DNA of 64,000 bases, taken from an uncultured cyanobacterium (GTDB lineage Bacteria > Cyanobacteriota > Cyanobacteriia > Cyanobacteriales > CAWUOF01). Made by a program: the position numbers and the translations under genes. Where the stretch lies: positions 2,304,001-2,368,000 of the forward strand of contig CAVUSO010000001.1 of the NCBI GenBank assembly GCA_963744145.1, given 5' to 3'. Below are positions 9,327-29,227 of the stretch, in pieces. The notes below the pieces were generated by a model that saw nothing but the letters and a program-made list of their open reading frames with translations, did not search any database and was not told the origin of the DNA. Numbering within the stretch: position 1 is the first letter of the stretch; each line of letters begins with the position of its first letter.

Positions 9327-9656
9327 TCATAGAGTAACGATCCTGTTTTCAAACTCGCTCACCGCCAAACGTTGCTCCCGCACCCGACCTACCCTCAACG
9401 CATCAATTAGACTTAATGGGCCGGGTGTGGTGTAGAATACATAGCGCAACCCGTGAACCAAAAATTCTAGTAGTGCTTGCTTCAAAATCCTCCGATTCTC
9501 AGCATTATAAAGACCTGCTGCTTCACATCGAGCTAGAGCAGCATGAACTTCTGATGTACTCATGCCCAAGCTTTGAGCGAGGGTGCTGTAGGTCCATCTA
9601 GCTGAGGGCCAACTGTGGACTTTGAGGATGGCAACGATATCTTGGGGTTTTAGCAT
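9327..9656 (-). pseudogene. Internally deleted duplicate of the HTH gene at 7721-8230
   Basis: Near-identical DNA lacking 180 bp between the two GACTTAA copies (7804-7810 and 7984-7990 in the full gene). Confidence 0.9.
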
Positions 9657-9664
9657 CGGTCGGC

Positions 9665-9861
9665 GGCGAAGCATGAGGGCAAGTTAGCGATCGCTAGCAC
9701 GGAAAATTTATTACCCTCATGCTTCACCCTTTGCCCTGATTGTCTTAAACTAACTATATCAAAAAATGAGAAAGCATCAAACAATGAAAAAGAAGGGCGA
9801 AGCATTCCGGGAATAAATCACTCGTTGTAACCAATAACTGATCTGCCGGAATGCTTCGCCC
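9665..9861. repeat. Two related REP-like hairpin elements (GGCGAAGCAT...ATGCTTC[A/G]CC)
   Basis: 9665-9682 pairs with 9711-9728 (16/18). 9795-9810 pairs with 9846-9861 as a perfect 16-bp inverted repeat. Confidence 0.75.
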
Positions 9862-9917: not shown

Positions 9918-12314
9918 TTATTGTGTTCCTTCACTTAAATCAAGCAGTGGTTTTAATAAGTTGCGTTCTTCGATCGGAAGTTCTAGTAAGATACGGCGAT
10001 CGCTTTTACTTTCCCGATACCTAACAGCTATATTGAGAAAACGGATAGGGATTTGGAATTCGGAGCGATCGCTTGTTAGTTTCTGCCATACTTCTAACCA
10101 CGTTCTTACTGCTTTATCGTTGACTACTTCTGACATTAACATGGGGATACTTGCTACAAGTCCCTGTCCTAATGTGGAGATAACTTTGTAACGCTCATAA
10201 AGCGATATCAGTGTTTTAATTAGAGTTTTCCATATCTCTCTATCTTGCTCAAAATTGAACAGATTGTTGAGAATTGCTTTGGTGTTGTCGATGTTGAGAA
10301 CATCTACATCTGCAAAATAACTGAGTGCCTTTTCTAAAGCTAGGATACCTTCATCCCAACGACTTAGTACTAGTAAACACCCAGCACGGTTAAGGAAAAC
10401 ATACCGATCTCGATAACCAAGATTTATTGCTTTTTCAAGAGATATTAATGCTTGTTCATAGCGTCCGAGCTGACATAACACCCAGGCTCGATTATTCCAA
10501 ATAGTTGCGTAATAAGGTGGAAATTCTTCGGAAAATTGATCTTCAAGTTCAATTACTTTGTTGAAGGACTCTAAAGATTCCTCATAACGCCCTAATTTGA
10601 CAAGTAAATAGCCTCGTTCCAACCAAACTTCTGTTTCATTCGGGTTTAACTCAACAACCTTTTGATAACATTCCCAAGCTTCCTCATTTCGTCCTAGGTT
10701 TACTAAGATTTTGCCCATTTGAAACCAGACTAAAGCTTCTTGGGGATCGAGTTCAATTACCTTAGTAATAAATTTTAATGCTTCTTCATAGCGCTCCAGA
10801 TCGACTGATATAAGAATTTGGCCATACCAAGCCCATATATTTTTTGCATCCATCTCAATTGCTTTGTCAAGAGACACTTGTGCTTCCTTGCAATGTCCAA
10901 GAATTTTTAAGCAGTATCCCTGTAATATCCATTCCAACGTTTGACCGCGAAATTTTACCAATTTTTGGGTTACTTCCAGAGCCTGAATAAAATCGTTTTT
11001 ATGCAAGTAATTTTCATACTCATATAAATAGGCCATTACCCGTGGATCTTCTCCATCTTCTTTTGCAATTTCTAATGCTTTCAGCAGATATTCTCGCTCT
11101 AGTACGTCATCTGGTAACACTTCTAATCGCTGTTGCAACTCTGTTTGCGAATACCAGCATCGCAAAAAGTCTACAAATAAGCGAATTGGCTCACGTCGCT
11201 GCTTCTTAACATCCATACAAAAGCGCATCAGTGGCTCTTTCAGCTCATAATAAGACTCGCCTCCAATTGATTCAGCATAAACATAACCCATCTCTCGTAA
11301 ATTCTTTAACTGACTAGATGCTGTTTGGTGAGTGATAAAACAACATTGGGCAATTTCTTTGACAGTAACAGCATAGCGACGATCACACAAAAAGTCCACA
11401 ATTCCTCGCTGCTGAGGTGAAAGATGCACCATCCTTGACTGATAATAAGGTGTCAAATTATCCAGTGTTCGCATAAATGGTTCTACCAGTTCATCTAGCA
11501 ACTCGCGGGTTAGGAATTGGGAGAAAATAACATAGACGCGGGGGTTGCCCCCAGCTAGGTGATGAACTGCTTTAATTCGAGCTTGTCCAGTTGGAGTTTG
11601 AATGAAAGATTCTAATTCGCGATCGCTTTCTAATTTAGCTACATTTATCAATAGTTGGGTGGCATCTTCTGGTGTCAAATCCTTAAGCTCACGGATGCGA
11701 AAAAAGCCATAAAAGGGATTTTTTCGCAGTTTTACCCCATTAAACAAACTTGGCGATGTTGCCACAATTGTAAAAAAATCATTCTGTTGCAAAAAAGCAC
11801 GGAATCGTTTCTGACCAGACTCTCCTAATCCAGCAAATACCTCATCTAAGTTTTCTATAAGTAGGAGTAAAGTACGATTTTCAATAAATTCTTTAAGTAA
11901 GTCTGCGGCTGTATATTCAGCAGTCTCTGGCGATTGATAAAGCGCCTCTACCTTTTGCTTCAGCTTGGTATTATATTCTTCTGGATATTCTTTCTCGATC
12001 GCCGCAAAAATCCTTAACAACAACTTTAAAAATGACGTGATACTCCATTCTTCCTCTCGTAACCAGGCAATAAGAAGGCGATCACGCAAATCCTCCATTT
12101 TCGATATGCGGTGATAAATTAGTGAAACTAGATGGGTTTTGCCAATTCCACGGGGACCAATGAGTAGGGTGTAATGCTTTGCTGGTGTAATCGCACTGTC
12201 CCGAATCAGTTCAACCAGATGCTGTGCTAGCTGTTGACGCTGGACAAAAATTCCTTCCAACACTTCTGGTGTCATTGAACTAGGAGTGAAGCGAGAAATA
12301 AAAGTTGCTTTCAT
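9918..12314 (-). CDS. P-loop ATPase (STAND/AAA-like) + wHTH + TPR-repeat protein
   Basis: GPRGIGKT, LLLIENLD, GGNPR, HTH (VKEIAQ...TASSQLKNL) and several TPRs. ATG 12314 overlaps the upstream stop (ATGA). Confidence 0.85.
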   Translation of the reverse strand: MKATFISRFTPSSMTPEVLEGIFVQRQQLAQHLVELIRDSAITPAKHYTLLIGPRGIGKTHLVSLIYHRISKMEDLRDRLLIAWLREEEWSITSFLKLLLRIFAAIEKEYPEEYNTKLKQKVEALYQSPETAEYTAADLLKEFIENRTLLLLIENLDEVFAGLGESGQKRFRAFLQQNDFFTIVATSPSLFNGVKLRKNPFYGFFRIRELKDLTPEDATQLLINVAKLESDRELESFIQTPTGQARIKAVHHLAGGNPRVYVIFSQFLTRELLDELVEPFMRTLDNLTPYYQSRMVHLSPQQRGIVDFLCDRRYAVTVKEIAQCCFITHQTASSQLKNLREMGYVYAESIGGESYYELKEPLMRFCMDVKKQRREPIRLFVDFLRCWYSQTELQQRLEVLPDDVLEREYLLKALEIAKEDGEDPRVMAYLYEYENYLHKNDFIQALEVTQKLVKFRGQTLEWILQGYCLKILGHCKEAQVSLDKAIEMDAKNIWAWYGQILISVDLERYEEALKFITKVIELDPQEALVWFQMGKILVNLGRNEEAWECYQKVVELNPNETEVWLERGYLLVKLGRYEESLESFNKVIELEDQFSEEFPPYYATIWNNRAWVLCQLGRYEQALISLEKAINLGYRDRYVFLNRAGCLLVLSRWDEGILALEKALSYFADVDVLNIDNTKAILNNLFNFEQDREIWKTLIKTLISLYERYKVISTLGQGLVASIPMLMSEVVNDKAVRTWLEVWQKLTSDRSEFQIPIRFLNIAVRYRESKSDRRILLELPIEERNLLKPLLDLSEGTQ

Positions 12315-13483
12315 CCTAAACCTCTGTGTTGTCGCCAGTAGCGTTGAATTAGCTGATATCGAAAGCAAAATGTGCCATCAGATTTCTGAATAATGTAGTG
12401 ATCCCGCTGGATTAGCGTCAAAACATCCCGTACTTTTTCAATATTGGCATTAGCTAGACAAGCTAAAAGCTGATTGTATAGATCATTAAAAGATAGTGGT
12501 ACTAATGCCAAAGCCAAAATGTCCAACAAGTTTAGTGCTAGCGGTATTTCATCACTCAGATAGTAATTGTCAATGCGATCGCGATAGTGGCGTAAATCCC
12601 AACGATCTTGGGGATCGCTGAGGTAATTATTAACGATCTGATCGGCAATAATTGAGTCAACTGGATTATCCTGCTGCACCATCTCGTCAACAATGTGGTG
12701 AATGAAGTAGGGTATACAGTCAGCCGCATTAGCGATCGCCTTCGCAGTTATGATTAGATCATCGGTCTGAATGTTTTCTCCTTCAAGTAATCGCCGTGCT
12801 AAATCTTGAGCATCAGCATCTGACAGAGGTGGCACATCCTCTTTCTGCATATCATTAGTTGGAGCGTTTTTATATCCTGCTCTTTTCAGGGAAGTGAGGA
12901 CGTTGTGCAAACCAATTGAACCTGTAAAAACCATCCTTAAGCTGTCGTAAGTTTGCCGGAGCGATCGCAAAGTATCTAGCACTTCCATTGCTACTGTTTC
13001 ACCCGAATCTTGCTTAATGTTATCAAGCATTAGTGGCATCTCATCCCAGAAAAAAACTACCGTGCGGTCTTTTTGATTCTCTACCAGGTCTGCGATAGTT
13101 TTGGTTAGCAGAATTTTCCATTGGTCAGCAACCTCATTTGGAAATTTGATGATGCCACCAATCTCTACACCTTTCATAATTTTCAGCCATTCTCGTGCTT
13201 TGCCCTTAGTTTGTCCTAAAACAGTTAAATGTCCTTCTAAATCATTAAAAACTGTCTGAGCAAATTCCAGTGGCGATCGTACTCCCTCCAGTTCTCGGTA
13301 AATTGGTAACTTATCGGATGGTGGTTCCGCAGTCATTTTCTTGATAATGCTTGTTTTACCCATCCGTCGCTCTGCACTCAGAACAAGACTTTGCCGCTCC
13401 AGAATTCGCCACAAGCGTTGAATCAGTTTCTCTCTTCCTACAACTTCAGACGGAGGAATTTTGCCTCCTGGATTGACTCTCAT
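12311..13483 (-). CDS. AAA/archaeal-ATPase-like P-loop NTPase
   Basis: VVGRE, variant Walker A AERRMGKT, Walker B FFWDE, FTGSIG, IPYFI. Confidence 0.85.
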   Translation of the reverse strand: MRVNPGGKIPPSEVVGREKLIQRLWRILERQSLVLSAERRMGKTSIIKKMTAEPPSDKLPIYRELEGVRSPLEFAQTVFNDLEGHLTVLGQTKGKAREWLKIMKGVEIGGIIKFPNEVADQWKILLTKTIADLVENQKDRTVVFFWDEMPLMLDNIKQDSGETVAMEVLDTLRSLRQTYDSLRMVFTGSIGLHNVLTSLKRAGYKNAPTNDMQKEDVPPLSDADAQDLARRLLEGENIQTDDLIITAKAIANAADCIPYFIHHIVDEMVQQDNPVDSIIADQIVNNYLSDPQDRWDLRHYRDRIDNYYLSDEIPLALNLLDILALALVPLSFNDLYNQLLACLANANIEKVRDVLTLIQRDHYIIQKSDGTFCFRYQLIQRYWRQHRGLG

Positions 13484-13748: not shown

Positions 13749-15887
13749 TTAGCGGATAAAAAGATTACATCTAGGGCAATTTTGTCCACTTTTACCTTGT
13801 CCTGTACAAGCTCCACAATAAGGACAAATTTCTCTGATTCGTCCCGATTCTGGCACTTCATTAGACTCACATAGTGCTGAAAGTTGATCTCGTCCCAACA
13901 ATTGTTCTCGTGCCATCGCATGAACAGCGTCGTATGAAGACACATCTGCTTTTGATGTTGGTGGTTTCATTTTTAATGGTTCAAGTTTGGGAATAGGATT
14001 CTTACACTTGTCACATTCTCGCCAACTCCATTTAGCTGCACACTTGGGACATTTGCCTTCATTATCCTTAAATTTCGATCGCACACTGCTAAGGTCAGCA
14101 TCACATACCGGACACAAAGACGGATGGATACCATAAAGTAAATCCACCCCTAAAGTATGAAAGCGGAAAAACCGTTGGAATCGCTCCAATGTACTTAAAT
14201 CCAACGGACTAGCAGGCATCATACCAACACGATAACCAGCATTATGATTAACAAATAACTTATAATCCTCTGAAGTCATAAATTTTTCACCAATATTTAG
14301 CATTCGTTGAATTGACTCTGGTGCTACCTTCCTCATTTTTCGATCGCGCGGATCGGTTGGGTGTACGAGCAACACGGAAATCCTCTTCTGGTTATGATTG
14401 CGGTTTTGTTGTTTGGCAACTTTATTAGTTGGAACGACTAGGGTTTTGCCATTATGATAAAGAGTATCTACAGTCTTTTTGACTTCATCATGATTACCAA
14501 AAAGCGATCGCGCTACTGGAATTATTACCAGTTGAATATGAGTTGGATGAGATGGCGATCGCTGATTACCATTAGATTGCCAGATTAAATCTATATTTAT
14601 ATTCAAAGTTCTTTGATCGGGAGGTTGCACTACAACAGTCCACCCTTCCCACTGTAATGCTTGATTAAACTCTAACTCTGGTGGGAAATTCTCAGGTTTA
14701 GTATTTGCACTATCAAACCCAATCCAACGCAGAGCTAACAGCACACAGCCATAGATATACTTGGCATAATCTAACTGGATGCTACACCGACTCGGACTTT
14801 GTTCTGCTAAGTTAGGATTTTGAACTCCTGCAATTATCTCCCATAACTGGCTGATGCGCCGATAATCCGAATCCATTTTCAAAATATTGGTCGGTTTTAA
14901 AGGTGATACCACATCCGGTTTACTAGATAGACTTTTATAAAGAACTGAGTCTAAACAACTGCTGACCTCAGTATATAAACGGCTAATTTTAGCTCTCAGT
15001 TCCTTGGATTTTTCGTATTCTTGTGAATGGTCTTGTTCAAGTATTGTATCTAGATTTTTCCAGAGTTTCTTGAGCCTCTGATCTCGGAGCCAATTGTATT
15101 GATATCCGGTAAATAAATTTTCATGTAGTGTCTCTATTTGATAATAGGCACGATTTACTTCACGAAGTCGCTCTTCTAACCATCCGAGTAACCGTCGAAT
15201 TAGGGTGGCGACCACCCGATTTTCATACAAGTCTAGTGTTTCTTCAGGTACTTCACTGATAATTCGAGCAGGAGTAATGCGTGTTGCAGTACGAGACTGC
15301 CATAATTCTGGTCGAGACGCTAAATGTTCGATGGCATTTGGTGGAATACGTCTAGCGCGGTCGATCGGCATTACTCGACGTTCTACTATCAATGTCCGCC
15401 TGGGTTTACTACATATTCTAATTAAAGAAGGTAAAGTTTCTGCGATCGCATCGTCGATGTTCAATGCTTTCTGATCCGTCAGAGAATCGCGAATAGTACC
15501 GGGAGAAAAAAACGGCAGACATAATAGTTCTTCTTTTGATAAGCTGGGCGAAAGTTTGTTAGCTTGATTTGCAAAAAGAACCAAAGCATCTACCATCACT
15601 TCATCAAGAAGTGTCTGCGATGGCACCTCAAACTTATACCGCCCAATAATTATTCCGACCGGTTGAGAAATCCGCACAGAGCAGCATCCCTCAGCATCAA
15701 CTAAAATTGGCAAATCGCCAGTATGTTCTTGCTTATTGTCGTTGAATGCAATTTCTATTTCGCCATCTTCAGTAGTGCAGTTAATCCGTATTCGGTAGTC
15801 GTCAATACTATCTAAATGACGACGTTCCCCAGGTTGAACAACTTCTAACTCACCAGTCCACCGATTAACTAAAGAAAGAGTTACCAT
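13749..15887 (-). CDS. DUF2357/McrC-like protein with C-terminal multi-CxxC Zn ribbons (CnuC-like)
   Basis: ETLDLYENRVV...L..L and KPTNILKMDSDYRRI are typical of DUF2357. CPVC, CPKC, CDKC, CPYC and CPRC. Follows the McrB-like gene. Confidence 0.75.
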   Translation of the reverse strand: MVTLSLVNRWTGELEVVQPGERRHLDSIDDYRIRINCTTEDGEIEIAFNDNKQEHTGDLPILVDAEGCCSVRISQPVGIIIGRYKFEVPSQTLLDEVMVDALVLFANQANKLSPSLSKEELLCLPFFSPGTIRDSLTDQKALNIDDAIAETLPSLIRICSKPRRTLIVERRVMPIDRARRIPPNAIEHLASRPELWQSRTATRITPARIISEVPEETLDLYENRVVATLIRRLLGWLEERLREVNRAYYQIETLHENLFTGYQYNWLRDQRLKKLWKNLDTILEQDHSQEYEKSKELRAKISRLYTEVSSCLDSVLYKSLSSKPDVVSPLKPTNILKMDSDYRRISQLWEIIAGVQNPNLAEQSPSRCSIQLDYAKYIYGCVLLALRWIGFDSANTKPENFPPELEFNQALQWEGWTVVVQPPDQRTLNINIDLIWQSNGNQRSPSHPTHIQLVIIPVARSLFGNHDEVKKTVDTLYHNGKTLVVPTNKVAKQQNRNHNQKRISVLLVHPTDPRDRKMRKVAPESIQRMLNIGEKFMTSEDYKLFVNHNAGYRVGMMPASPLDLSTLERFQRFFRFHTLGVDLLYGIHPSLCPVCDADLSSVRSKFKDNEGKCPKCAAKWSWRECDKCKNPIPKLEPLKMKPPTSKADVSSYDAVHAMAREQLLGRDQLSALCESNEVPESGRIREICPYCGACTGQGKSGQNCPRCNLFIR

Positions 15888-15890
15888 AGC

Positions 15891-18242
15891 CTACCGTTTA
15901 AATTTATTAATCTCGCGATCGAGCAAATCAAGAGATATAGCAGGATTGTCCAGGGAATTATCATTAAAATGCTGCTTAATTGTATCTCTTACTTCTTGCA
16001 GCCTAGAGCGCACATTAGGATCAGTTCGATTTTGGACTTGCCAAAGTAACTTCCTAGCTATAAAGTGATCTAACCCGTTGCTTAATGAACCCCCTGTTGC
16101 TTTATAAGCAGGAAGAAAGATCAACAATTGATCCAATAAACGTTGTCCGTAACCTACTTGGAAATATTCATCCAGTTTTGCACCAATCTTCTTAATACAA
16201 TCATTAGTAGTTGCTCGCTCTTTTGGGGAAAAACTTTCGATCGCATTCTTCACAGCTTTGCGAAAGTCTAAAATATTTAGGCTAGCTGCTTGTGTAGAAG
16301 ATAATTTTTCTTGTTGGGGTGCTTTATCTATTTGCAGAATTTGGGCACGATCATATACTTTGCGAGTAATTTCGTAAGTGGACTCATCTGTATTAGCGGT
16401 GCCAATAAACCAAACATTATCAGGAATCGGTAGGTTCACAGCCCCATTTTTCAATTTCAGTCCTTTAGGAAGATTACCGCTTGTAGGGTCGTGATTTAGA
16501 AGTTCAATCTCTCTATCTTCTAGACGACCTTCCATAATCGAGAGCAGATCAGCAAAATAGTATTCTACCCGCGATAAATTCATTTCATCTAATACAATAA
16601 AATAGGGATAATCACGATAGGATTTGGTTCCAGCTTCATAAAGCGCTCTCGAAAAGGGAGATTCATTAAAAACCCGGAAGAAAGAATTGTAAGACCCTAG
16701 TAAATCCAGTTTATCTCGCCAACTAGACTGCACCTCGATTCTGGCAAATTTTCCACCGACTGCGTAAGAAAAATATTCTGGTAAGCTAGTCTTACCTGTA
16801 CCACTCACCCCTTGGATAATAATTAATTTGGAAGATGCCATTGAAGCAATAAATGCCTGAATTATATGCACATCATAATAGTGGGCAAAAAGCGAACTTT
16901 CAGCTTGCCCTGTTTCTAATTCTTCGCGAGTTGGTAAACTTGCCATCCAAGTACGAGTTTGATGAGCCAACTTATTAAGGGTATTAACATTTTCCCTCTC
17001 AATATTGTCAGGGACATGATTAGTTTCACTATCAATTTCAGCAAAGTTTGCAAAGGCTTGAATTTTCTTATCTTTAAGAGTCCCCAGCATTCGCTCTAAG
17101 TCTTCTATTTGTTCTTTCCAATATTCATTAAGTAGTTTGAGTCTATCTCTTTCTTTGCGGAGATTTTCAGTTTCTTCTCTTCCTCTTTCTTGCTGGCGGC
17201 GGATGCGTTCTAAATCATCGACTTTAGCTTGTAAATCCCGATACATTGCCTCGAAATCGATTGCAGCTTCAGCACGACGACGCAATTCAGTAAGTTCCGC
17301 TTCTGACGGATATTGCTCAAGAATTTGCTCGTACTCTCGCAGCTTATTCTCCAGTATTGTATTCTCTTGCAACAGTCTTTCTGGTGAACCTGATGTAGAT
17401 TGAAGAATATTTTTACTTTGTTGTAATTCTTCTATAAGCCGATAATTTTGTTGTTCGATAACTTCAATCCGTTGCTGAATACCTTTTTTTTCAGCTGTTA
17501 ATCTATTGACCGCATCTTCTGAGCAATTACGCTCACGTTCAGCTATTTCTCGTTCCTTCTGTTGCAATTTTTTCTTTTGTTCAGTAAGCCGGTTATTTTC
17601 ATCTTTAATGTCTTGCTCTCGATCTTCAATGTCTTGTTCTCGGCGTTTAACTTGCCTTTGTAAATTGCGAATATTATCTTCTCTTGTTTGAATTGACTTT
17701 TCTTTCTCATCGGCTTCTTGGCGACGTAATTCTAGCTCCTGAAGCGTTTTTTCTCTGGTTCTTTGGCGGTGTTCACTTGCTAGAGATTGTGCGTCTTCAA
17801 TAATTTTATCAGCTTCATTCTGAGCATTACTCTTAATATTTTGAGCTTCACTGATTATTTCTTCTGCTTGTATCTTTGCAGCTTGAACAATCCGTTCTCG
17901 CTCTTTTTTAATTTCCTGTTCTTTTTGGATTTTCCACCCTTGACGAGCAGATGCTTCTAACTCTTTAAATCCATTGATAGCTTGTTGTTCCTTATTATCC
18001 AATTCCTCCCTTCTTTTAAGAAATTCATCTTCTTCTGCTTTATATTTTTCTAATTCGGATTCTAGTTCCTTGATTTTTTTTTGAAGCTGTTGTGGATCTT
18101 GAGACTGAGCATTAACATTGACTGGATTTTGAATAGATGCAACAGGACTAGTAGGTTTCACAGTAGATTCAACCTTTGCTGGTGGTTGCGAAGGTAGATT
18201 AGAGCGAGTTTGATTTACATTTCTTCTATTCTTATTAGCCAT
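15891..18242 (-). CDS. Coiled-coil McrB-family AAA+ NTPase (CnuB-like)
   Basis: About 350 aa of coiled coil, then GVSGTGKT, VQSSWRD, LDEMNLSRVEYYFAD and GTANTDES...KVYDRA. Confidence 0.88.
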   Translation of the reverse strand: MANKNRRNVNQTRSNLPSQPPAKVESTVKPTSPVASIQNPVNVNAQSQDPQQLQKKIKELESELEKYKAEEDEFLKRREELDNKEQQAINGFKELEASARQGWKIQKEQEIKKERERIVQAAKIQAEEIISEAQNIKSNAQNEADKIIEDAQSLASEHRQRTREKTLQELELRRQEADEKEKSIQTREDNIRNLQRQVKRREQDIEDREQDIKDENNRLTEQKKKLQQKEREIAERERNCSEDAVNRLTAEKKGIQQRIEVIEQQNYRLIEELQQSKNILQSTSGSPERLLQENTILENKLREYEQILEQYPSEAELTELRRRAEAAIDFEAMYRDLQAKVDDLERIRRQQERGREETENLRKERDRLKLLNEYWKEQIEDLERMLGTLKDKKIQAFANFAEIDSETNHVPDNIERENVNTLNKLAHQTRTWMASLPTREELETGQAESSLFAHYYDVHIIQAFIASMASSKLIIIQGVSGTGKTSLPEYFSYAVGGKFARIEVQSSWRDKLDLLGSYNSFFRVFNESPFSRALYEAGTKSYRDYPYFIVLDEMNLSRVEYYFADLLSIMEGRLEDREIELLNHDPTSGNLPKGLKLKNGAVNLPIPDNVWFIGTANTDESTYEITRKVYDRAQILQIDKAPQQEKLSSTQAASLNILDFRKAVKNAIESFSPKERATTNDCIKKIGAKLDEYFQVGYGQRLLDQLLIFLPAYKATGGSLSNGLDHFIARKLLWQVQNRTDPNVRSRLQEVRDTIKQHFNDNSLDNPAISLDLLDREINKFKR

Positions 18243-18260
18243 TTATACCTCTGACTATCA

Positions 18261-19910
18261 TTAGCTGATTAGTAAGCGCCATGCTTTGATAACAGAACGG
18301 ACAATTTGATAGGTTTTTGCAACTAAATCCTGAACCAAAATGATGGGATCATTGTGACTTTCACCTGCATGAGCGCCGAACTGGTTACGGTTTTGAGTAA
18401 TCTGGTCTAAATCTGATAAAAAAGCAGGATTTTCTTGTAGTAGGTGTTCAAGAATGCGTCGATGTAAGCTAGATTTTCGACTAGATGACAATAGAAATGT
18501 AGCAATGTATGGACGTAAGGAATTTGGATCACCATCAAGGACACTACGAATTGCTCCTAGTTTAGTACATAAAATTCGCTCAGGGATCTCGCTTGTGGAA
18601 CAAGCTTGAACTGTATCGCTCAAACATTGTTTTAACGCATTTTCCTTTTTGTAGGATTCCCAAATATTATCAGGTATTGTATCAACTTTTAGTAAAGATA
18701 TCATTAATTGCTCTAAAACCCTTTGAACTCGTGTGAGCGTTGTATCTATCTCATTAAATCCACTTTCTAAAAACGATCGCGATTGTTCCATCCGTTCAAT
18801 TTCTTCCCAAACTGGCTCCCATAATGGATCAGGAGGTTGTCCAATCTCCAAAACTACTTTATTGTAAACTTGACGTGCTACAGTAACAGGTTCAAGATTG
18901 GGAGGTTGTTTAGATTTCCAGATTTGACGGCTATGAGATTGTAAATCTTCTACAATTTTCTTACCCTCTTCACATTGGGATGTGGCAAAATTTAGTAAGC
19001 GGACCCAACGAAAACCATCGGGAAGCCCAAAGGGACAACGGATCGAAAATAAACCATCATAAGATCCTGTAATAATGCAAGATACTAACAAATAAAAACG
19101 TTGCGATCGCTTATTCAAAAAGCGTACTCTAAATTTTTCTCCTAGTTCGGCTTTTTTAGGTTTTTTAATTGGTAAGTTATCGATTTCACGAATTTTAATA
19201 AACTCACCGACATCAACTGAAGGATGATCATCGTTAGTTGGCTCTTGAACTCGTTTGAACAAACGGCGGTATGTTTCTATTGCCAATATAACATTAGAAG
19301 TATTAGGAGGAGTTAAATTTTGCTTAATCCAAGGTAGTTGAAAAGCTTGGGTAATATTCGAGCGATTGGGGTCAGCAAAATAGAGATTTTCTGTATAAAA
19401 AAAAGGAAGCAACTCTCCTGCTGTAGCATCTTGAAAAATCCAACCATAGCTGGTTCTTTCTTCCTCCCCTTCACCTTCCTGTTGGAGAATTTTTTCTCCT
19501 TTTTCAGTCAGACGACCATGATTATCAAGATAGTCTTGATTTTTCAAGTCCATCATAACATTAAAGAGGAAATCTTTGTGCTGTCCCATTAATTTTGCTT
19601 GCTCTTGATGGCTGATGATTCCAGCACGAGCTAAACGTAAAGAAGTCAGTTGTAGTAAATCTAATTGCCGATCTGTCACTTGAGGAGCAGCAATTCTCCA
19701 TCCATAAACGGGCCATAAAATAGTCTGCTGGTAATCATTCTGAGCTTCATCTGGTCGAATAAATCTGAGAATTCCCACATTTGGCTCTCTAGGTTCTCCA
19801 TCTGAACCGCGATCGCTAGACAAAGGTAGAGGAAATTCATCCTCAAAAAGTAGTTCCTCATCGTCAAATTCAAAGGACATATTGTTATCTTCGCGTTCAG
19901 ATGTCTGCAT
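18261..19910 (-). CDS. wHTH + C-terminal HEPN-like effector (CnuE-like)
   Basis: PVYGW followed by a wHTH-like segment; C-terminal RNQFGAH resembles the HEPN Rx4-6H motif. Start chosen at 19910 from the AGGAAGGA RBS; 19880 is an alternative. Confidence 0.65.
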   Translation of the reverse strand: MQTSEREDNNMSFEFDDEELLFEDEFPLPLSSDRGSDGEPREPNVGILRFIRPDEAQNDYQQTILWPVYGWRIAAPQVTDRQLDLLQLTSLRLARAGIISHQEQAKLMGQHKDFLFNVMMDLKNQDYLDNHGRLTEKGEKILQQEGEGEEERTSYGWIFQDATAGELLPFFYTENLYFADPNRSNITQAFQLPWIKQNLTPPNTSNVILAIETYRRLFKRVQEPTNDDHPSVDVGEFIKIREIDNLPIKKPKKAELGEKFRVRFLNKRSQRFYLLVSCIITGSYDGLFSIRCPFGLPDGFRWVRLLNFATSQCEEGKKIVEDLQSHSRQIWKSKQPPNLEPVTVARQVYNKVVLEIGQPPDPLWEPVWEEIERMEQSRSFLESGFNEIDTTLTRVQRVLEQLMISLLKVDTIPDNIWESYKKENALKQCLSDTVQACSTSEIPERILCTKLGAIRSVLDGDPNSLRPYIATFLLSSSRKSSLHRRILEHLLQENPAFLSDLDQITQNRNQFGAHAGESHNDPIILVQDLVAKTYQIVRSVIKAWRLLIS

Positions 19911-22900
19911 ATCCTTCCTCACTGCGACAGAGATCAATAAAAGCTTTTAGTATCTTAGACCAGGGTGTACCATCGGAGCGCATTCCCGCAACACAGGTAG
20001 CATCTCCTACTCCAATTAAAACACATCGAGCGCGGCTAAATGCAACACAAAGCCGATTGGGTAATGCGGTAAACCCAAGACGCTGTTCAATTGATGAGTT
20101 CTGATTACTACGAACTGTGGAGAGATATACTATATCATACTCGCGTCCCTGAAAAGCATCAACAGTACCAACACGCACCCGCTCTTGGAGATGCTCAGGT
20201 AAACCGTTACGCTGATCTGCGATCGCATCTTTAAGTGCTTCTTCTTGAGCAGAGTAAAATGCAATCACTCCCACCATTCCAGTAGGTTGATTTGGATCAA
20301 AATTAGGATATTTTTCCTCAATTCGTGGTAAAATACGGCGCAGTTCAGCCATAATCCGAATAACTTCAGCAGGTCTTTCCCAGCTCGATTTACCAGACCG
20401 CTTTTCACCTCCTTGATGATCTGGGATATTCAACCAAACTACAGGTTTTTGATTGTACTCTCCTGTGTAATTCGGTCGTGCTTCTGGTTTGACAAAATTG
20501 GAATTAAGGGGGCTTTCCGGATAAAAATAATCACTAATAAATTTACCAATTGTTGGGTGCATCCGAAACTGATCTGTCAATTGAGCAGTCCGTTCAATCC
20601 CATCTATTGCTGTTTGTTGAGGCAGAGATGCCCAGAGTCTTTCAAATAAACTCTTTCCATAAACTTCTCTTAGCTTTTCATCACCTTCTTTGGCTAAACT
20701 CTGCGCTATTTCTCGCTCCAAAACATGGGGAAGTTGTTTGTGATCACCAACTAAGATAATTCTTCGTCCTTTCACCATTGGTATTAGTAAATCTAGTGGG
20801 TTTGCTCTTGCTGCTTCATCTACTATCACTAGGGTAAATGTTCGATCATTCATTCCTAGGTGCTTCGAGTCTGCTTGTCCACAACTAGCAGCTTGAACTG
20901 GTGAATATTTCCGAATAACTTCTCTAACGTGATTGGGGGATTCCTCTAAATCTCGCACAAATAGTTCAAGGGTATCTTGTACCCCTTCCTCACTTTTAAC
21001 GCGAACTGCTTCGACTTCCTCAATAGCAGCTAGGAGACATCGTTCTATTTTCTCATCAGAAACATCCTGTTCAGCAATGGCTTGGGTAATAGGAATCTCT
21101 AGCAATTGTTGGCGAATACCAATACAGGCATTTTTCAAAGAAAGCCAAGGTTCTAGATTAACTGTATTTTCTTCACTCCACAATATCGCGACTTCCACAG
21201 CTTCAATAATATCATGAGAAAGATGATCTAAATAAGGATCTAAAAAACGTCGCAGCCTTCGAGCTTGCCGATTTCCATCCTCTTTGAAACTTTCTGCTGT
21301 AATACATTGCTGATTGAGTCGTCGCTCCAGTTCATCTCGATCATCAGCATCTTCAATTATTGGCTGATTTTGCGCTTGAATGACTGGAACAGTACCTGCA
21401 AGATGATCGATTTCAGCAACTCGTTGAGCAGATAAAAAGGTTTCTGCTACATTACGAAAATCTAAAAGGATTTCACGAGTTCCTTCACGTCCACCTGCTG
21501 AGGTGCGCCAATGGGAAAGATAACCTTTGAGTTTGTCAATTAACACCAGAGTTGGAGATGGTTCGGTAGAGAGGTGAGAACGAACTACTTGAATAACTTG
21601 GTTTCTCCAAGTTTGAATGGTTTCAGCACCTCGATCTTCCCCTTTTTTGCCTCCTAATCTATCTACCGGAAGTCCACCAATACTCATACTAGCGATCGCA
21701 TTATCTACTGCTTCATGCTGAAGACTTGTTACCAAAACAGTTTCCAACACTTCACCTGGATCTCGTCCATCATTAAGCATCATCAGCAGTGCTTGAATTA
21801 CTCTGGTCTTTCCCGTTCCCGGAGGTCCCTGAATCAGCGCAATATCCGGTGTACTCAGTGCAATTCTCAGCGCTTTTTCCTGAGCAGGTGTTGGTCCATT
21901 TTCACCAAAAATCTTGCGTGCAGTTTTAGTTAGTAGTTGCTTTTTCCGGGGAGGAATTACTCTATCAAAGGATTTACCTTCTAGAATTAAACCCAAATAA
22001 GGAAGACCAGAACGTGCCGATTCTAAAGTAGTTAGTGCTTTTTCACGTCTTTGAATTCGAGATTTTTCCAGACCCATTGAGGGATAGATTTCCCCATCTT
22101 TGTTAGGATATTCCTGCTGACCTTCCCAAACCAAAGTTAGGCAATGGGTATTAAGATTGTATCCTGATACTGATCCTTCAGGCATACCGATGTTATCTTG
22201 AATGGTTACAGGGATACCATCTCCTGAAATATGTTTAAGCCAAGGTGTTATGTTGGCAGATGGTTTTAAATAAAAATTTAGTAAATTTCTATTACCATCG
22301 TTAGAAATAAGACTTTGTATTCCGTTGTATGGTAAAGGAGATAGCAGCCCAAAACGCTCTTCTAAAATTCGATTTTCTTCAGCATTATACTCTTTCCAAC
22401 TCGCAATCCAACTATTATTTTCCTGAACAGCTTTGCTCAATGCTGAAATAGCCGCCGATCGCATTGTGCTAGCAACGGTTTGATCACAAAACTCTAATGA
22501 TTCCCGCATCAAATAAATAGAGCGATCGCTCAAGTTACGCCCTAGTCGCTTCATAGCTTCTGCTACAATCTGCCCGTCTTTTTGGGGAACTAAATTGAGT
22601 GACCAAGACTTTCCTAACACAGAAAATCCCTTCTGAAAATCTGGATCTTTGACCCCTGATGTTACAAACCAATAACCTAAGTGATTAAGTATAAATTCTT
22701 CTTTTAATTGGCGTTTAGCATCTTGAAAGTTTTTGACTTTACGCCAATTCTTACTAACAACTGTTTCAATAAACTCGTCAGTGATAGCAACTTCTAATTG
22801 AACTGGGATTTCGGAATTAGGTACATTAAAAGAACGCCCATCAATTTCAATTGTATTGTCTGTCGCTTTCATAATGCAACCTACAATTAAAGTGTGCCCT

Positions 22901-23124
22901 GATTGCAGTTCTGCCAACAGTATTTTAGCATCAGGTGAATCTGGTTTAATTTCAATGATTGTCTCATCATCCCTACCGTTAGGAATTTGAAAGCATAGAG
23001 TGTTTTCATCAATTCGCTTTAATTCAACAATCTTATCCTCCCAATTATCATTATTTCTTAGGTTGAAGCTATGTAAAAAATGCCCACCTACTTGTTTGCC
23101 AAATTTGAGGTCAAATAATTTCAT
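19897..23124 (-). CDS. SF1B Upf1/DNA2-like helicase (CnuH-like)
   Basis: QGPPGTGKT, VDEAARA, GDHKQLP, QFRMHP, TVDAFQGRE, VAFSRAR. Confidence 0.92.
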   Translation of the reverse strand: MKLFDLKFGKQVGGHFLHSFNLRNNDNWEDKIVELKRIDENTLCFQIPNGRDDETIIEIKPDSPDAKILLAELQSGHTLIVGCIMKATDNTIEIDGRSFNVPNSEIPVQLEVAITDEFIETVVSKNWRKVKNFQDAKRQLKEEFILNHLGYWFVTSGVKDPDFQKGFSVLGKSWSLNLVPQKDGQIVAEAMKRLGRNLSDRSIYLMRESLEFCDQTVASTMRSAAISALSKAVQENNSWIASWKEYNAEENRILEERFGLLSPLPYNGIQSLISNDGNRNLLNFYLKPSANITPWLKHISGDGIPVTIQDNIGMPEGSVSGYNLNTHCLTLVWEGQQEYPNKDGEIYPSMGLEKSRIQRREKALTTLESARSGLPYLGLILEGKSFDRVIPPRKKQLLTKTARKIFGENGPTPAQEKALRIALSTPDIALIQGPPGTGKTRVIQALLMMLNDGRDPGEVLETVLVTSLQHEAVDNAIASMSIGGLPVDRLGGKKGEDRGAETIQTWRNQVIQVVRSHLSTEPSPTLVLIDKLKGYLSHWRTSAGGREGTREILLDFRNVAETFLSAQRVAEIDHLAGTVPVIQAQNQPIIEDADDRDELERRLNQQCITAESFKEDGNRQARRLRRFLDPYLDHLSHDIIEAVEVAILWSEENTVNLEPWLSLKNACIGIRQQLLEIPITQAIAEQDVSDEKIERCLLAAIEEVEAVRVKSEEGVQDTLELFVRDLEESPNHVREVIRKYSPVQAASCGQADSKHLGMNDRTFTLVIVDEAARANPLDLLIPMVKGRRIILVGDHKQLPHVLEREIAQSLAKEGDEKLREVYGKSLFERLWASLPQQTAIDGIERTAQLTDQFRMHPTIGKFISDYFYPESPLNSNFVKPEARPNYTGEYNQKPVVWLNIPDHQGGEKRSGKSSWERPAEVIRIMAELRRILPRIEEKYPNFDPNQPTGMVGVIAFYSAQEEALKDAIADQRNGLPEHLQERVRVGTVDAFQGREYDIVYLSTVRSNQNSSIEQRLGFTALPNRLCVAFSRARCVLIGVGDATCVAGMRSDGTPWSKILKAFIDLCRSEEGYADI

Positions 23125-24512
23125 AATTGATCTACCATAGATTGATTACGCACCTTTGCTCTAATTCCTGAAGGGAAGACAATCAATATTTTATCAAATA
23201 GCCAGACAAATTCACCTGGAGCGCAAGTTCGTTGATGATTTCTAACATCTTTAGTATCCCAAGTATCTTGGCTTAAGTTCTTAAGGCAATAAATTTTATC
23301 ATTGCTACTATTGCGTTGAAACCCAAACTGTGCTAATGTGCCGATTACTTCTGAATTTTCACTGATCAGACGCAAGGGAATAATTCGCTGTTCTTTGTCC
23401 AATACAAACCGATAGGATTTTTTAACTCTTTTAAGTTCCTTTATTTCGTTTTCATCCAAGTTATCAATAGGTGGATCGGAATCAAAGAAACCAAGTTCAA
23501 TCGGGCGATCGCTTGTTTGACCACACCAATCACAAACCAGTGAGGCTCCTCGGATATCTGGTAAATAGGAAGTAGCACCACATGGGCACAATGCTGTTTG
23601 ATCGGCAGCTTCTTCTAATGCACATAACCATTCTTCTGAAGAAGGTCGTACCCAAGGATCTAATATACCCGGTTCAAATGCTTGTCTACAAAGTTCTTGT
23701 AGTCTCCTAGTTAATACTTTTCCCCTTGGTAAACCATAGCTAGAGTAATTTTGCTTGTTCTCTTTTGAATCAATAAATGGTAACTCTCCTTGTAGAGCAA
23801 TCTCCTCCATTTCTGGCTCACCATCGATTACTTGATCACCAAAAAAGGGATGATTTAGCACTAATAAGTAAAAAATTGCTACTGCTAAAGACCAGCGATC
23901 GGATGCGTGATTAGGAAAACGAGACTCTTTCAGGATCTCTGGAGCAATAAATTGTTCTGTTCCAATCACTTCTGCTAAAGATGTTCCTGGAATAATTAAG
24001 TTATCAGGATCGATGAGTTTAATAGATGTTTGTTTGCGATCTGATGGGACAAGGACGTTTTCCCAGGATAAATCCACATAACATAATCCATTACGGTGAA
24101 TTTGCTCAAAGGTTCTAGCTAACTCGGCACAAATTCTTAAACGACGACGTAACCCACCTGTGGAAATGTGCCAGTTGGGATCGCGATCGCGTGGACAAAC
24201 TAACTCAGATAAGGGTATAGAATCTTTAACTCGATCCATTACATAGCCTAAATGTGGCTGATCTAAAACAGCGATCGGCAATACTAATGAGTCGATCTTC
24301 AAGTTTCGTCTTGTCAGCAAGCGAAGTTGCTTGCGAGCATCATCAGTATGTCTAGAGTTGGGTGGTAGACAAACTTTTACTAAAATATTAGCATCCTCAG
24401 TAGTAAATACAATTCCTTGTCTACCCTGATTTAGCTGTTCAACTAGCCTGTAGCGTCTTCCCTCTAAATCTCGAACAATTTCACCTGGTATTGGCAAAGA
24501 GAATTTAGTCAT
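23121..24512 (-). CDS. TerY-associated Ser/Thr protein kinase with Zn ribbon and an FHA-like C-terminus
   Basis: GRQGIVF, YVDLSWENVL, IDPDNL, GTEQFIAPE, DRWSLAV, HPFFG; CPCG and CDWCG. Confidence 0.88.
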   Translation of the reverse strand: MTKFSLPIPGEIVRDLEGRRYRLVEQLNQGRQGIVFTTEDANILVKVCLPPNSRHTDDARKQLRLLTRRNLKIDSLVLPIAVLDQPHLGYVMDRVKDSIPLSELVCPRDRDPNWHISTGGLRRRLRICAELARTFEQIHRNGLCYVDLSWENVLVPSDRKQTSIKLIDPDNLIIPGTSLAEVIGTEQFIAPEILKESRFPNHASDRWSLAVAIFYLLVLNHPFFGDQVIDGEPEMEEIALQGELPFIDSKENKQNYSSYGLPRGKVLTRRLQELCRQAFEPGILDPWVRPSSEEWLCALEEAADQTALCPCGATSYLPDIRGASLVCDWCGQTSDRPIELGFFDSDPPIDNLDENEIKELKRVKKSYRFVLDKEQRIIPLRLISENSEVIGTLAQFGFQRNSSNDKIYCLKNLSQDTWDTKDVRNHQRTCAPGEFVWLFDKILIVFPSGIRAKVRNQSMVDQL

Positions 24513-24526
24513 GTTTAATCTTTTAC

Positions 24527-25186
24527 TTAAAACTCCAGATCATCATCATTAAGCAAGTGAAATGGTAAATTACTGGATGAGTTAGGATTTTTAGCAGTTG
24601 AACGGGCCATAACTGACATAGTAACAAATCGAAAGAAGTCCATTAGTTTGACAACTTCTGTCGCACGCACAACTGGAATTTCTGAATGATTAACGAAACG
24701 TTTAAGGACATCAAAATCGCAATCATTTCCAATCCCAACAGCTAAACGAACTGCTCGTCCTCCTCGGTCGGAATCTAACAATTCTTGAAGCGGTTCTTCC
24801 CAATCATCATTGGGCTGACCGTCACTAACCAAAACGATACTAGGTAGATAAGAGCGTTTCGGGATCTGTTGTTCATCTTTCAACAACTGGAGAGCTATTT
24901 TAAATGCTGCTCCCATCGCTGTAGTACCCCTAGCAACCAAAGTAGGTAAATGAACGTTTTCGATCGGAGTCAAAGGAAGAAGTAGCTGAGCATTACTGTC
25001 AAATGTGATAATGCTAGTATGCAGATGACTGCGAGGATCATGTACATCTTTGAATTTTTGGTGCATTTCCGTCAGTGCAGCGTTAAGAGTATCAATTTTC
25101 TCGCCCTCCATACTGGTACTGACATCTGCTAGTACAATAACTGGTAGTGGTCGTCTCTGGGGCAGAAAGTCATTAAGGTCTTGCAT
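24527..25186 (-). CDS. TerY-like vWA domain protein
   Basis: RRPLPVIVLADVSTSM (MIDAS), GTTAMGAA, LVSDGQPND. Confidence 0.9.
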   Translation of the reverse strand: MQDLNDFLPQRRPLPVIVLADVSTSMEGEKIDTLNAALTEMHQKFKDVHDPRSHLHTSIITFDSNAQLLLPLTPIENVHLPTLVARGTTAMGAAFKIALQLLKDEQQIPKRSYLPSIVLVSDGQPNDDWEEPLQELLDSDRGGRAVRLAVGIGNDCDFDVLKRFVNHSEIPVVRATEVVKLMDFFRFVTMSVMARSTAKNPNSSSNLPFHLLNDDDLEF

Positions 25187-25296
25187 ACATTTGTTAATCA
25201 GACTTTGTGAGCAGCTATGGCATTGCAGTTCATATAGACTACAAAAATGGGATCATATTTTCTATTTTATAGTTCCCATTAGTTCTTGCAAAATCA

Positions 25297-25917
25297 CTAT
25301 GTTTTAGGTTCAATAATTTTGACTAAAATTCGCAAAAGGTCTTCTAGATCAGCAGGAACACGATAGAGATCGAGGTTTTGAGTTACTTGACGAGATTGTC
25401 GATCAAACTGACCAAATTGCCAAATATTCCCAGTTGAAATTGCACCTGGTAAGATCGGTTGTTCAGAATCTATCCATTGATCGAGGGCAATTAATTCAAT
25501 AGCTAGCTGCACAAAACCACGTTCTAGGTCTTCATTTTTGGCTTCAATTACGAGAAAAGTTTGGTGATTTTGGAGGAGATAGTCTAGGGAACCTTTGAGT
25601 TGATTACTAACAGCAATAGGATATTCGACGTTAAGAGTAGCTTGGGTATAGTGCAACAGATCAGTTAACACTGGAGCAATCAGAAATTCTCGTCTTGCTA
25701 TTTCACTGGTGAGACTAAGACGAGGTAGACTTTCTTCAATTCTAGCTTTAAGATCAGTAAGGCGATCGAGGGTGCCCATATATTTAGGCAGATTTAAGGA
25801 GCAACGTTGGAGAGAAACGTTAAAATATGCTAGAATATCTTGCGGTGCAAAGTTGAGTTTAAAGTAGTCAGCAAAAGTGTAAGACTGATCAGGTTGAATA
25901 ATCTTCGTTCTAAGCAT
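25297..25917 (-). CDS. Conserved cyanobacterial restriction-endonuclease-fold protein
   Basis: SEIARRE, GSLDY, IEAK, STGNIWQF. Confidence 0.65.
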   Translation of the reverse strand: MLRTKIIQPDQSYTFADYFKLNFAPQDILAYFNVSLQRCSLNLPKYMGTLDRLTDLKARIEESLPRLSLTSEIARREFLIAPVLTDLLHYTQATLNVEYPIAVSNQLKGSLDYLLQNHQTFLVIEAKNEDLERGFVQLAIELIALDQWIDSEQPILPGAISTGNIWQFGQFDRQSRQVTQNLDLYRVPADLEDLLRILVKIIEPKT

Positions 25918-26258: not shown

Positions 26259-26543
26259 TTATTCTGCTATTACTTCTTGATTTCTTTTCTTTAATAAAGT
26301 CAGCAGTTTTCTCGTTTCTAAGTCCATCAATACTGCGGCATAATTTTTACCTTCTTTTAACTGAGTTATTTCATCTATCCCTAATTTTTTTTTATTGATT
26401 ATTGTCTCTCCAGCAGGTTCACGCACATCCACTAACATAGGTCGATCGCTTGTCAACAGGCTTTTTAAGTCTGTCACATTCGCGATCGCGTAATACCCTG
26501 GTGGAATCGACTTGAGAAAGCGATCAGAGATGGGAACTGACAC
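26259..26543 (-). pseudogene. Chimera of a rhodanese 5' fragment and an ISL3 transposase fragment
   Basis: PMLVDVREP (rhodanese) joined to KKLGIDEI...GKNYAAVLMDL (ISL3). Confidence 0.65.
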
Positions 26544-28639: not shown

Positions 28640-29227
28640 CTAAACTGCTTCAAACTGAATATTTTCATATAAATCTGCAAGGGTAAACTCTAAAGGAATA
28701 GTTGATAACTTGATGCGATCGCCTAGATTTTTGGATTCTCTAAAAATCCATTCCTGCTCATTTGTCTTTACATAATGCTCAATACAAACCGTATATTGAT
28801 CGATCAATAAATACTCCTGAAAACTGGGAACAGTACGATAAGCTGCAAATTTACCATCCTTGTCATAACTCCTTGTTCCCTGAGAAAGCACCTCCGCAAT
28901 CAGCAACGGATTTGTCACCGTATCAGTCCGTCCCGTCTGTAACTGCAAAGGTTGCGATACTACCATTATATCAGGATAGGTAAACTTATTTAACTGTGGA
29001 ATCCATAGCCTTTGATCCATAATGAAACAACGATAGGGTTTTCCCCTCAGAGCAAGTTTAAGGATTACCATAAAATTACTCGCAATATCGTTATGATTTG
29101 GTGTTCCCCCACTCATCGGTCTAATTTCCCCATCAATATATTCATGGCGTTCCTCAGCATTAACCTCAAACTCCAGATATTCTTCGATAGTAGAAAATTT
29201 TGACTGGGTTAGAGCAATCATGATCAA
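28640..29227 (-). CDS. Uma2-family endonuclease
   Basis: HEYIDG, YPDIMV, EVLS, EYLLIDQ. Confidence 0.9.
   Translation of the reverse strand: MIMIALTQSKFSTIEEYLEFEVNAEERHEYIDGEIRPMSGGTPNHNDIASNFMVILKLALRGKPYRCFIMDQRLWIPQLNKFTYPDIMVVSQPLQLQTGRTDTVTNPLLIAEVLSQGTRSYDKDGKFAAYRTVPSFQEYLLIDQYTVCIEHYVKTNEQEWIFRESKNLGDRIKLSTIPLEFTLADLYENIQFEAV

Follow-up and report, generated by a model that had tools for sequence, protein, structure and literature searches.

Six closely packed genes on the minus strand of a cyanobacterial chromosome raise the question of which defence system they form, and of how a phosphorylation switch built from a vWA protein and a kinase would operate where the phosphatase that usually stands between them is missing. 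The genes occupy positions 13749-25186 of the window, by which we mean the whole stretch of 64,000 nucleotides (nt) analysed here, taken from contig CAVUSO010000001.1 of an uncultured cyanobacterium (assembly GCA_963744145.1). An initial annotation, made from the letters alone, had read them as an operon resembling the CoCoNuT (coiled-coil nuclease tandem) defence systems, with vWA and kinase genes but no PP2C phosphatase. Our analysis leads us to conclude that the locus is very probably an intact Type II CoCoNuT, belonging to a cyanobacterial sub-lineage in which PP2C has been cleanly lost from between the vWA and kinase genes. The basis for this assignment is the gene content, the catalytic motifs, the orthology to catalogued members, the clade-wide absence of PP2C and the purifying selection acting on the genes.

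CoCoNuTs are Type IV restriction-like systems derived from McrBC (Bell et al., eLife 2024, PMC11090510). The Type II form consists of CnuH, an Upf1-like helicase; CnuE, which joins a winged helix-turn-helix (wHTH) to one HEPN domain; CnuB, a coiled-coil McrB; and CnuC, which is described as an McrC_N domain, an inactive nuclease and a zinc ribbon (PMC11090510). These genes are usually preceded by a TerY-P triad comprising a vWA protein, a PP2C and a Ser/Thr kinase with zinc ribbon (STK-ZnR); almost all systems with cnuHE carry the triad, which is not counted as part of the CoCoNuT core because a few systems are without it (PMC11090510).

The six open reading frames (ORFs) follow one another in the order vWA, STK-ZnR, CnuH, CnuE, CnuB and CnuC (Table 1), with successive gaps of 14, -4, -14, 18 and 3 nt. 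The value of -14 is counted from the CnuE ATG at 19910, which gives a protein of 549 residues (aa); the longest CnuE ORF starts from a TTG at 19937 and would encode 558 aa. All six are free of internal stops and align with their orthologues over the whole length, and both the gene order and the overlapping or near-abutting arrangement of the frames are constant across all complete relatives. The tight packing and intactness reported initially, including a vWA gene 14 nt from the kinase gene, are thus borne out by the ORF list and the measured gaps. A sigma-70-like element lies upstream of the vWA gene, in a region that shows no excess of such sites over shuffled sequence, and a promoter-like block reading TAGTnATTTTG...GGGAA...TA.AA, which may act as a promoter, is kept upstream of vWA in six of six aligned loci. 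The cassette borders are marked neither by direct or inverted repeats nor by tRNA genes, and Rfam gave no match across the window.

The first two proteins have the features by which TerY-P members are recognized. The TerY-like vWA protein has a complete MIDAS (D21-x-S23-x-S25, T89 and D122, invariant in 10 sequences) and is the product of the best-conserved gene of the operon, with 76-90% identity within the clade of PP2C-less relatives described below and 41-46% to PP2C-bearing systems. The second gene encodes a Ser/Thr kinase fused to a C-terminal zinc ribbon: K46, D147, N152, D168/D170/N171 and A190-P191-E192 are invariant in 33 homologues, down to 25% identity, and the ribbon cysteines C309, C311, C327 and C330 are likewise invariant in 33 sequences, so that the Pkinase match and the four cysteines uphold the original kinase-zinc ribbon call. 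The kinase is also a weak match to the PADLOC MkoA model (9e-07). Neither the vWA nor the STK protein differs in length between the PP2C-less and PP2C-bearing clades.

CnuH proves to be the Upf1-like superfamily 1 (SF1) helicase that had been proposed, with matches to AAA_11 and AAA_12, to PADLOC MkoA (5e-102) and to the NCBIfam IGHMBP2-family helicase (4e-42). Since its AAA_11 match is stretched over residues 414-800 against a 257-position profile, CnuH contains a large insertion after Walker A, as in the Type II CoCoNuT helicase. Its N-terminal 400 aa have no Pfam match; this region gives leads only (0.84-0.87) to UPF1/SMUBP-2 1B domains in the ESM Atlas. In Type II systems this part of CnuH is described as holding SmpB-like, RNase-toxin-like and OB/stalk domains (PMC11090510). 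CnuB corresponds to the Type II McrB-like AAA+ GTPase of the NxD type: Walker A (G478-x-SGTGKTS), Walker B (D552-E-M-N) and the segment N617-T-D619-E620 are invariant in 8 sequences, and the shortened NxD signature is characteristic of the McrB GTPase branch to which the CoCoNuTs belong (PMC11090510, section 7). It matches PADLOC PDC-M26A (6.6e-43) and, weakly, the NCBIfam McrB equivalog (E 0.0042). Residues 51-400 are 51% E, K, R or Q and 2.3% P plus G, and align with the equivalent region of the orthologues; this composition fits a long coiled coil. CnuC, with 1479 representative homologues at E<=1e-3, combines DUF2357, the N-terminal domain of McrC, with zinc ribbons, as does CnuC of Type II systems, and its assignment as an McrC-like protein is thereby sustained. 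It has CxxC motifs at 592, 613, 625, 688 and 704, of which C592, C613, C616 and C688 are invariant in 46 sequences. The segment expected to hold PD-(D/E)xK reads IIPV...LLVHPT, with no conserved acidic-x-Lys in the alignment, which agrees with the label 'inactivated PD-DxK' in the table of Bell et al.; Type II CnuC is described as having an IG-like N-terminal domain and a PD-(D/E)xK fold with inactivating replacements (PMC11090510).

The PADLOC check proposed along with the initial annotation was informative in part, returning MkoA for CnuH and PDC-M26A for CnuB and no match for the vWA protein, CnuE or CnuC. NCBIfam gave general family matches for the operon proteins and no specific family, and Pfam gave no match for CnuE.

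For CnuE, predicted structures support a wHTH domain and a HEPN-like helical C-terminal domain, as had been suggested from the letters, and correspond to the elongated N-terminal wHTH and the single C-terminal HEPN domain with R-x(4-6)-H of Type II CnuE. The C-terminal domain was folded alone because wHTH rows filled the fold-search lists obtained with the model of the whole protein. Its best Foldseek row is the HEPN RNase Csm6 (5yjc_B; E 0.15, prob 0.82), and no match at E<=0.001 was obtained with either of the two CnuE models. Other fold-search rows for this domain are labelled 'AMPylated HEPN toxin' (7.8), 'HEPN domain protein' (7.8), 'archaeal HEPN homologue' (7.6) and 'HEPN toxin' (7.5). 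Roquin, LsoA, TT1696 and SO_3166 are presumably HEPN-containing; for LsoA only, this is echoed by a HEPN_RnaseLS label. The Pfam HEPN models produced a single weak match, in one of 17 CnuE homologues, HEPN_Apea had no match in the genome at E<=10, PDB sequence searches yielded no usable match for CnuC, CnuB or the CnuE profile, and ESM Atlas matches, scoring 0.80-0.87, are leads only. The HEPN-like domain carries R508-x5-H514; the form R-N-x-x-G-A-H (R-x5-H) is found in 9/9 CnuE proteins of the PP2C-less clade, and R-x4-H in 8/9 PP2C-bearing cyanobacterial CnuE.

The initial claim that no phosphatase lies on either side of the vWA-kinase pair holds: the six proteins and the seven flanking ORFs contain no match to PP2C, PP2C_2 or SpoIIE. 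In the genome as a whole (7.70 Mb in 4 contigs, with the window on a 7.63-Mb contig), there are eight PF13672 matches at E<=0.001, of which seven pass the cut-off; the window itself has none, the nearest lying about 300 kb off. PP2C queries from three cyanobacterial CoCoNuTs that carry the gene gave no tblastn match in the genome at E<=1e-3, and we therefore conclude that the genome contains no displaced cognate phosphatase, only generic PP2Cs. A second vWA gene of this genome (L034, G000:C1:4398000-4413000) was considered and rejected as a TerY-P triad, being part of a vWA-MoxR/VMAP-caspase locus. This locus, the only other genome match to the TerY-like protein, encodes a caspase-VMAP protein, an AAA ATPase and a 702-aa Macro-vWA protein.

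The same arrangement recurs in every close relative that could be read. A locus search with the kinase yielded nine Nostocales loci, two of which start inside the kinase gene; in all seven that extend upstream of it (L003-L009) the vWA gene directly precedes the STK gene. A sample of 401 genomes from the same GTDB order contains 13 with a kinase match at E<=1e-30, the window's own genome included. Four of these kinases are 67-100% identical to that of the window (its own, L035, L036 and L037), and vWA adjoins STK in 4/4; the other nine are 36-39% identical, and PP2C_2 stands between vWA and STK in 9/9, as called by Pfam in three (E 6e-33 to 3e-31) and by tblastn with those PP2Cs in six (E<=1e-83). 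A Pseudanabaena plasmid is annotated with PP2C in the same place. In total, PP2C is absent in 11/11 readable loci of the clade and present between vWA and kinase in 10/10 distant cyanobacterial systems. The PP2C-less clade spans several families and is found on a plasmid and on chromosomes, its copies nearest to the window being L035 and L036 (STK 78-80% identical). In a sample of the phylum, 4/401 genomes had matches, and the STK and CnuE searches gave the same four. The initial annotation had held that PP2C in close relatives would speak for a recent loss; the close relatives in this survey are also without it.

A maximum-likelihood tree of the kinase with 34 rows groups the 11 PP2C-less rows in one clade (99/96) and the 10 with PP2C in a separate one (99/98); a single change suffices to account for the presence or absence of PP2C. 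The tree is midpoint-rooted and includes 13 kinases of unlabelled gene context, five of which are placed on the stem leading to the PP2C-less clade. Locus searches with two of these intermediates returned the known loci and one remote kinase only (P0013), or remote kinases in metagenome contigs and none in genome contigs (P0015). The two clades also differ at the N-terminus of CnuE. The tail preceding a conserved anchor measures 59-80 residues in the PP2C-less clade versus 31-48 in PP2C-bearing systems, and the first 45 residues include 10-15 D or E in 9/9 members of the former versus 0-4 in the latter; the acidic tail is thus found in 9/9 PP2C-less and 0/9 PP2C-bearing cyanobacterial CnuE. 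In the window, residues 1-40 (19790-19910) are predicted to be disordered (pLDDT <50). Because the acidic tail and the loss of PP2C fall on the same single branch, they count as one event, an association without statistical weight, and their coincidence is only a lead.

The PP2C-less form is itself not new, and in this respect the initial interpretation has to be revised: its reading as a CoCoNuT, here assigned to Type II, with vWA and kinase but without PP2C stands, while its novelty does not, as the architecture is already tabulated (PMC11090510, Supp. file 3). The sheet 'Type II CoCoNuT' of that file has separate columns for TerY, PP2C and STK-ZnR, and in rows 130-133 the PP2C cell reads 'Gene not present' with the other six columns filled. 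These rows are Nostoc linckia NIES-25 (AP018224.1), Nostoc sp. FACHB-87, FACHB-973 and Nostocales cyanobacterium LEGE 12452; PP2C is entered for row 157, Pseudanabaena sp. ABRG5-3. At least 98 cells of the file read 'Gene not present', all genes and rows taken together. The main text of the article does not use the word 'PP2C', and we saw no treatment of a PP2C-less form there. Proteins of the four catalogued PP2C-less systems are 61-82% identical to those of the window, the full-length identity to the six proteins of N. linckia NIES-25 plasmid2 being 62-80%, and the LEGE 12452 contig is one of our surveyed loci (L007). What the present analysis adds is evolutionary: the phosphatase was lost once, and the vWA-kinase pair has since been under strong purifying selection across several families of filamentous cyanobacteria, which makes the PP2C-less clade a clean comparison set for the role of the phosphatase in TerY-P-regulated defence systems.

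Two readings would deny that the locus is a working CoCoNuT. By the first, the missing PP2C is the sign of a recent loss in a decaying operon without function. In its favour, some relatives are degraded: in L001 (1181-3358) an in-frame deletion fuses CnuH 1-453 to CnuE 276-549 (P0058, 732 aa), L008 keeps vWA, STK and CnuH without CnuE, CnuB and CnuC, and insertion sequence (IS) elements surround the window's own copy. Against this stand the six intact frames with their conserved catalytic motifs, the shared absence of PP2C throughout the clade, across several families and on plasmid and chromosomes alike, and pairwise Nei-Gojobori dN/dS values within the clade of 0.06-0.43 on all six genes (vWA 0.06-0.29, STK 0.13-0.31), over divergences of up to dS ~2 (window versus Nostoc group 1.15-2.1, saturated). 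Purifying selection on every gene implies that the loss of PP2C is old and stable rather than a step of decay, a reading that is largely refuted and to which we attach almost no credence. The genes flanking the window's cassette are not beside it in three relatives (the two nearest and N. linckia); together with selection and the conserved upstream block, this lack of recurring flanks indicates that the six-gene cassette is a selected, mobile unit and, again, that the loss is old. It is also very improbable that the locus is no CoCoNuT at all, being instead a chance meeting of a Mokosh-like helicase with an McrBC pair, or a housekeeping operon for RNA surveillance or stress. The best PADLOC match of the helicase is indeed MkoA, and tellurite resistance was the first role connected with TerY-P triads (PMC11090510), but the six genes keep their order and close spacing in every complete relative, there is no MkoB PLD nuclease, and the NxD motif of CnuB is that of the CoCoNuT branch; moreover, the distribution is sparse (13/401 genomes of the order, 4/401 of the phylum) and one copy lies on a conjugative plasmid, as is typical of accessory defence genes.

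Given a Type II CoCoNuT that has lost its phosphatase, the fate of the switch, irreversible or reset in trans, is a matter of inference. We tentatively favour, short of even confidence, the view that PP2C serves for tuning or safety and can be dispensed with, and that the switch would be reset non-specifically, by a generic host PP2C or by protein turnover and dilution; the seven PF13672 genes over the cut-off make such a reset in trans possible. The main alternative, preferred in the initial annotation, is an irreversible switch in which activation of the kinase commits the cell in the manner of abortive infection, with no reset. It accords with the absence of a cassette PP2C in all 11 clade loci and of a TerY-P-type PP2C from the genome by tblastn at E<=1e-3, with the conserved catalytic residues of the kinase, and with the precedent of the KKP module, where the phosphatase restrains the toxic activity of a defence kinase and a phage protein that inhibits the phosphatase releases it (PMC11341870). 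On the other hand, the seven generic PP2C_2 genes could dephosphorylate in trans, and if an unopposed kinase were as toxic as in KKP, selection should have opposed a clean loss of the phosphatase, and yet this is an old clade whose genes evolve under purifying selection. As a toxic kinase with nothing to oppose it would hardly be retained for so long and seven generic PP2Cs are at hand, we regard irreversibility as unlikely, if still the strongest competitor of a dispensable phosphatase. Considerably less probable is a rewired clade in which the CnuE tail is a built-in restraint or a ligand of the vWA MIDAS that replaces the phosphatase, with the kinase as a one-way trigger; if true, it would offer the first handle on vWA-kinase sensing and on the licensing of CoCoNuT effectors. 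We give slightly less weight still to a replacement within the cassette, by which the region of ~130 aa after the kinase zinc ribbon, or the acidic CnuE tail, took over the regulatory role of the phosphatase. The longer, acid-rich and disordered tail found throughout the PP2C-less clade and in none of the nine PP2C-bearing proteins speaks for it; yet both traits changed on one branch, the six proteins contain no phosphatase family match, and the lengths of the vWA and STK proteins are the same in both clades. Several points weigh against the interpretation preferred here, a CoCoNuT with a dispensable phosphatase. That PP2C was lost in this clade rather than gained elsewhere rests on parsimony and a statement of Bell et al. 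(PMC11090510), the tree not being rooted, and kinases of unlabelled gene context lie on the stem of the clade; the inactive nuclease of CnuC and the coiled coil of CnuB are read from alignment and composition. The seven generic PP2Cs are all unlinked to the locus, what the TerY-P triad does in CoCoNuTs is only a hypothesis, and our literature search found no cyanobacterial experiment on a CoCoNuT and none on a PP2C-less variant.

By analogy with the known families, the parts would work together as follows. The vWA-kinase pair may act as a phosphorylation switch that licenses the effector complex after infection (PMC11090510). CnuH and its wHTH-HEPN partner CnuE could then couple ATP-driven unwinding of RNA to its cleavage, and CnuB, as an NxD GTPase, may form with the putatively nuclease-dead, zinc-ribbon CnuC a GTP-driven coiled-coil motor or scaffold. 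Defence activity of a Type II CoCoNuT as a whole is supported by one preprint (10.64898/2026.04.06.716636): a seven-gene locus of Pseudomonas aeruginosa, placed in PAO1 and PMM3, protects against PP7 and LeviOr01, which are RNA phages, and against MPK7, a DNA phage, though not against MP29. That study used the whole seven-gene locus only, and the terms kinase and phosphatase are absent from the text available to us (10.64898/2026.04.06.716636). In the literature searched, the role of the TerY-P phosphatase has not yet been dissected experimentally.

Defence and mobile genes are abundant in the window (Table 1). The ATPase pair at 9918-13483, downstream of CnuC, is preceded by a promoter-like site (13590->13561) and is probably a separate unit, as it is not beside the CoCoNuT in relatives; the PD-DExK gene and ISL3 fragment on the other side are not conserved with the cassette either. 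About 4 kb upstream, on the operon strand and with unrelated genes between, 29256-32000 encodes a 914-aa protein with cNMP-binding, sigma-54-type AAA+ and Fer4_5 domains (PADLOC RtcR_PspF2 8e-19) and no CARF match; RtcR is listed with some Type II CoCoNuTs (PMC11090510). A CRISPR array at 32558-43312 is made up of a 37-nt repeat present in 130 plus-strand copies (up to 3 mismatches), with a T->C variant in the first nine full repeats. An IS carrying a DDE_3 transposase ORF (37488-38486) splits the array at ~37403-38524; no cas genes were seen in the window. At the other end, in a low-GC stretch (26-35%), a further SF1 helicase gene (35-5748; AAA_11/AAA_12, PADLOC TmtA and MkoA) is broken into ORFs 35-3076, 2985-3803 and 5140-5748, with a DDE_Tnp_1 gene inserted at 3833-5119 on the minus strand and a second transposase close by at 5764-6438.

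Table 1. Genes and elements of the six-gene cassette and of its surroundings in the window.
Feature	Position	Strand	Details
TerY-like vWA	24527-25186	-	219 aa; Pfam VWA_2 2e-11, VWA 1.5e-10
STK-ZnR kinase	23121-24512	-	463 aa; Pfam Pkinase 5.6e-15; C-terminal zinc ribbon
CnuH, Upf1-like SF1 helicase	19897-23124	-	1075 aa; AAA_12 3.7e-37, AAA_11 1.8e-27
CnuE	18261-19910	-	549 aa; acidic N-terminal tail, predicted wHTH, helical linker, HEPN-like C-terminal domain
CnuB, McrB-like AAA+ GTPase, putative coiled coil, NxD motif	15891-18242	-	783 aa; AAA_5 8e-06
CnuC, McrC-like	13749-15887	-	712 aa; DUF2357 7e-11; C-terminal zinc ribbons
Promoter-like element upstream of vWA gene	25264-25300	-	sigma-70-like TTTGCA-17-TAAAAT, 25292->25264
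PDC-M21B	7032-7724		PADLOC 1.4e-59; candidate defence gene
PDC-M21A	7721-8230		PADLOC 1.5e-46; candidate defence gene
PDC-S70-like ORF	8694-9005		
Short PDC-M21A-like wHTH ORF	9327-9674		
AAA_16-wHTH(MarR)-TPR, STAND-like	9918-12368	-	816 aa; overlaps AAA_22 gene
AAA_22 ATPase	12311-13483	-	390 aa; directly downstream of CnuC
PD-DExK/Cas4-like protein	25297-25917		PADLOC PD_DExK 2.8e-27; 110 nt upstream of vWA gene
ISL3 transposase fragment	26259-26543		after PD-DExK gene
Uma2-family nucleases	28640-29227 and 52526-53155		
TnpB/Cas12f-like protein, split	43877-45205 + 45219-45530		
Caspase + NACHT-C-terminal (NCC-H) protein	50822-52474		
XisH	53418-53918		

A TerY-P defence triad that stands alone was reportedly described by Gao et al. 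in 2020. Such triads and the cassette both pair a TerY-like vWA protein with a Ser/Thr kinase in a defence setting (PMC7699616), but in the window the phosphatase is absent, the vWA-kinase pair heads a larger effector operon, and the kinase carries a zinc ribbon in place of the OB fold of the stand-alone form (PMC11090510). With Mokosh type I the cassette has in common the Upf1-like, COG1112-type helicase core (MkoA 5e-102). Mokosh type I differs by its PLD nuclease MkoB, of which there is no match among the 13 proteins of the locus, whereas the window's helicase is paired with a wHTH-HEPN protein and an McrBC-like pair. Escherichia coli McrBC likewise couples an AAA+ GTPase to an McrC-family partner (AAA_5, DUF2357), but the window's system departs from classical McrBC in its NxD motif (8/8 sequences, in contrast to NxxD), in a coiled-coil-like N-terminus of ~400 aa in place of the DNA-reading domain, and in a CnuC that, by alignment, has no conserved D/E-x-K, unlike the active PD-(D/E)xK of McrC.

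The closest likenesses are to Type II CoCoNuTs themselves. Compared with the seven-gene systems of the Pseudanabaena sp. ABRG5-3 plasmid and of the Obs locus of P. aeruginosa PMM16, the window has the other six components in the same order and differs in having no PP2C_2 gene between vWA and STK; the seven-gene cyanobacterial systems have a CnuE without the acidic tail and mostly with R-x4-H, and are 22-46% identical to the window's proteins. N. linckia NIES-25 agrees with the cassette in all six genes and in their order, with vWA adjoining STK and PP2C absent in both, at identities of 80% for vWA, 68% for STK, 70% for CnuH, 63% for CnuE, 62% for CnuB and 65% for CnuC. The CnuE motif reads RNQFGAH in the window and RNTIGAH in N. 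linckia, the window's copy is chromosomal and that of N. linckia is on a conjugative plasmid, and the host of the window, in a GTDB family of its own, represents a lineage different from the catalogued Nostocales that carry the PP2C-less form.

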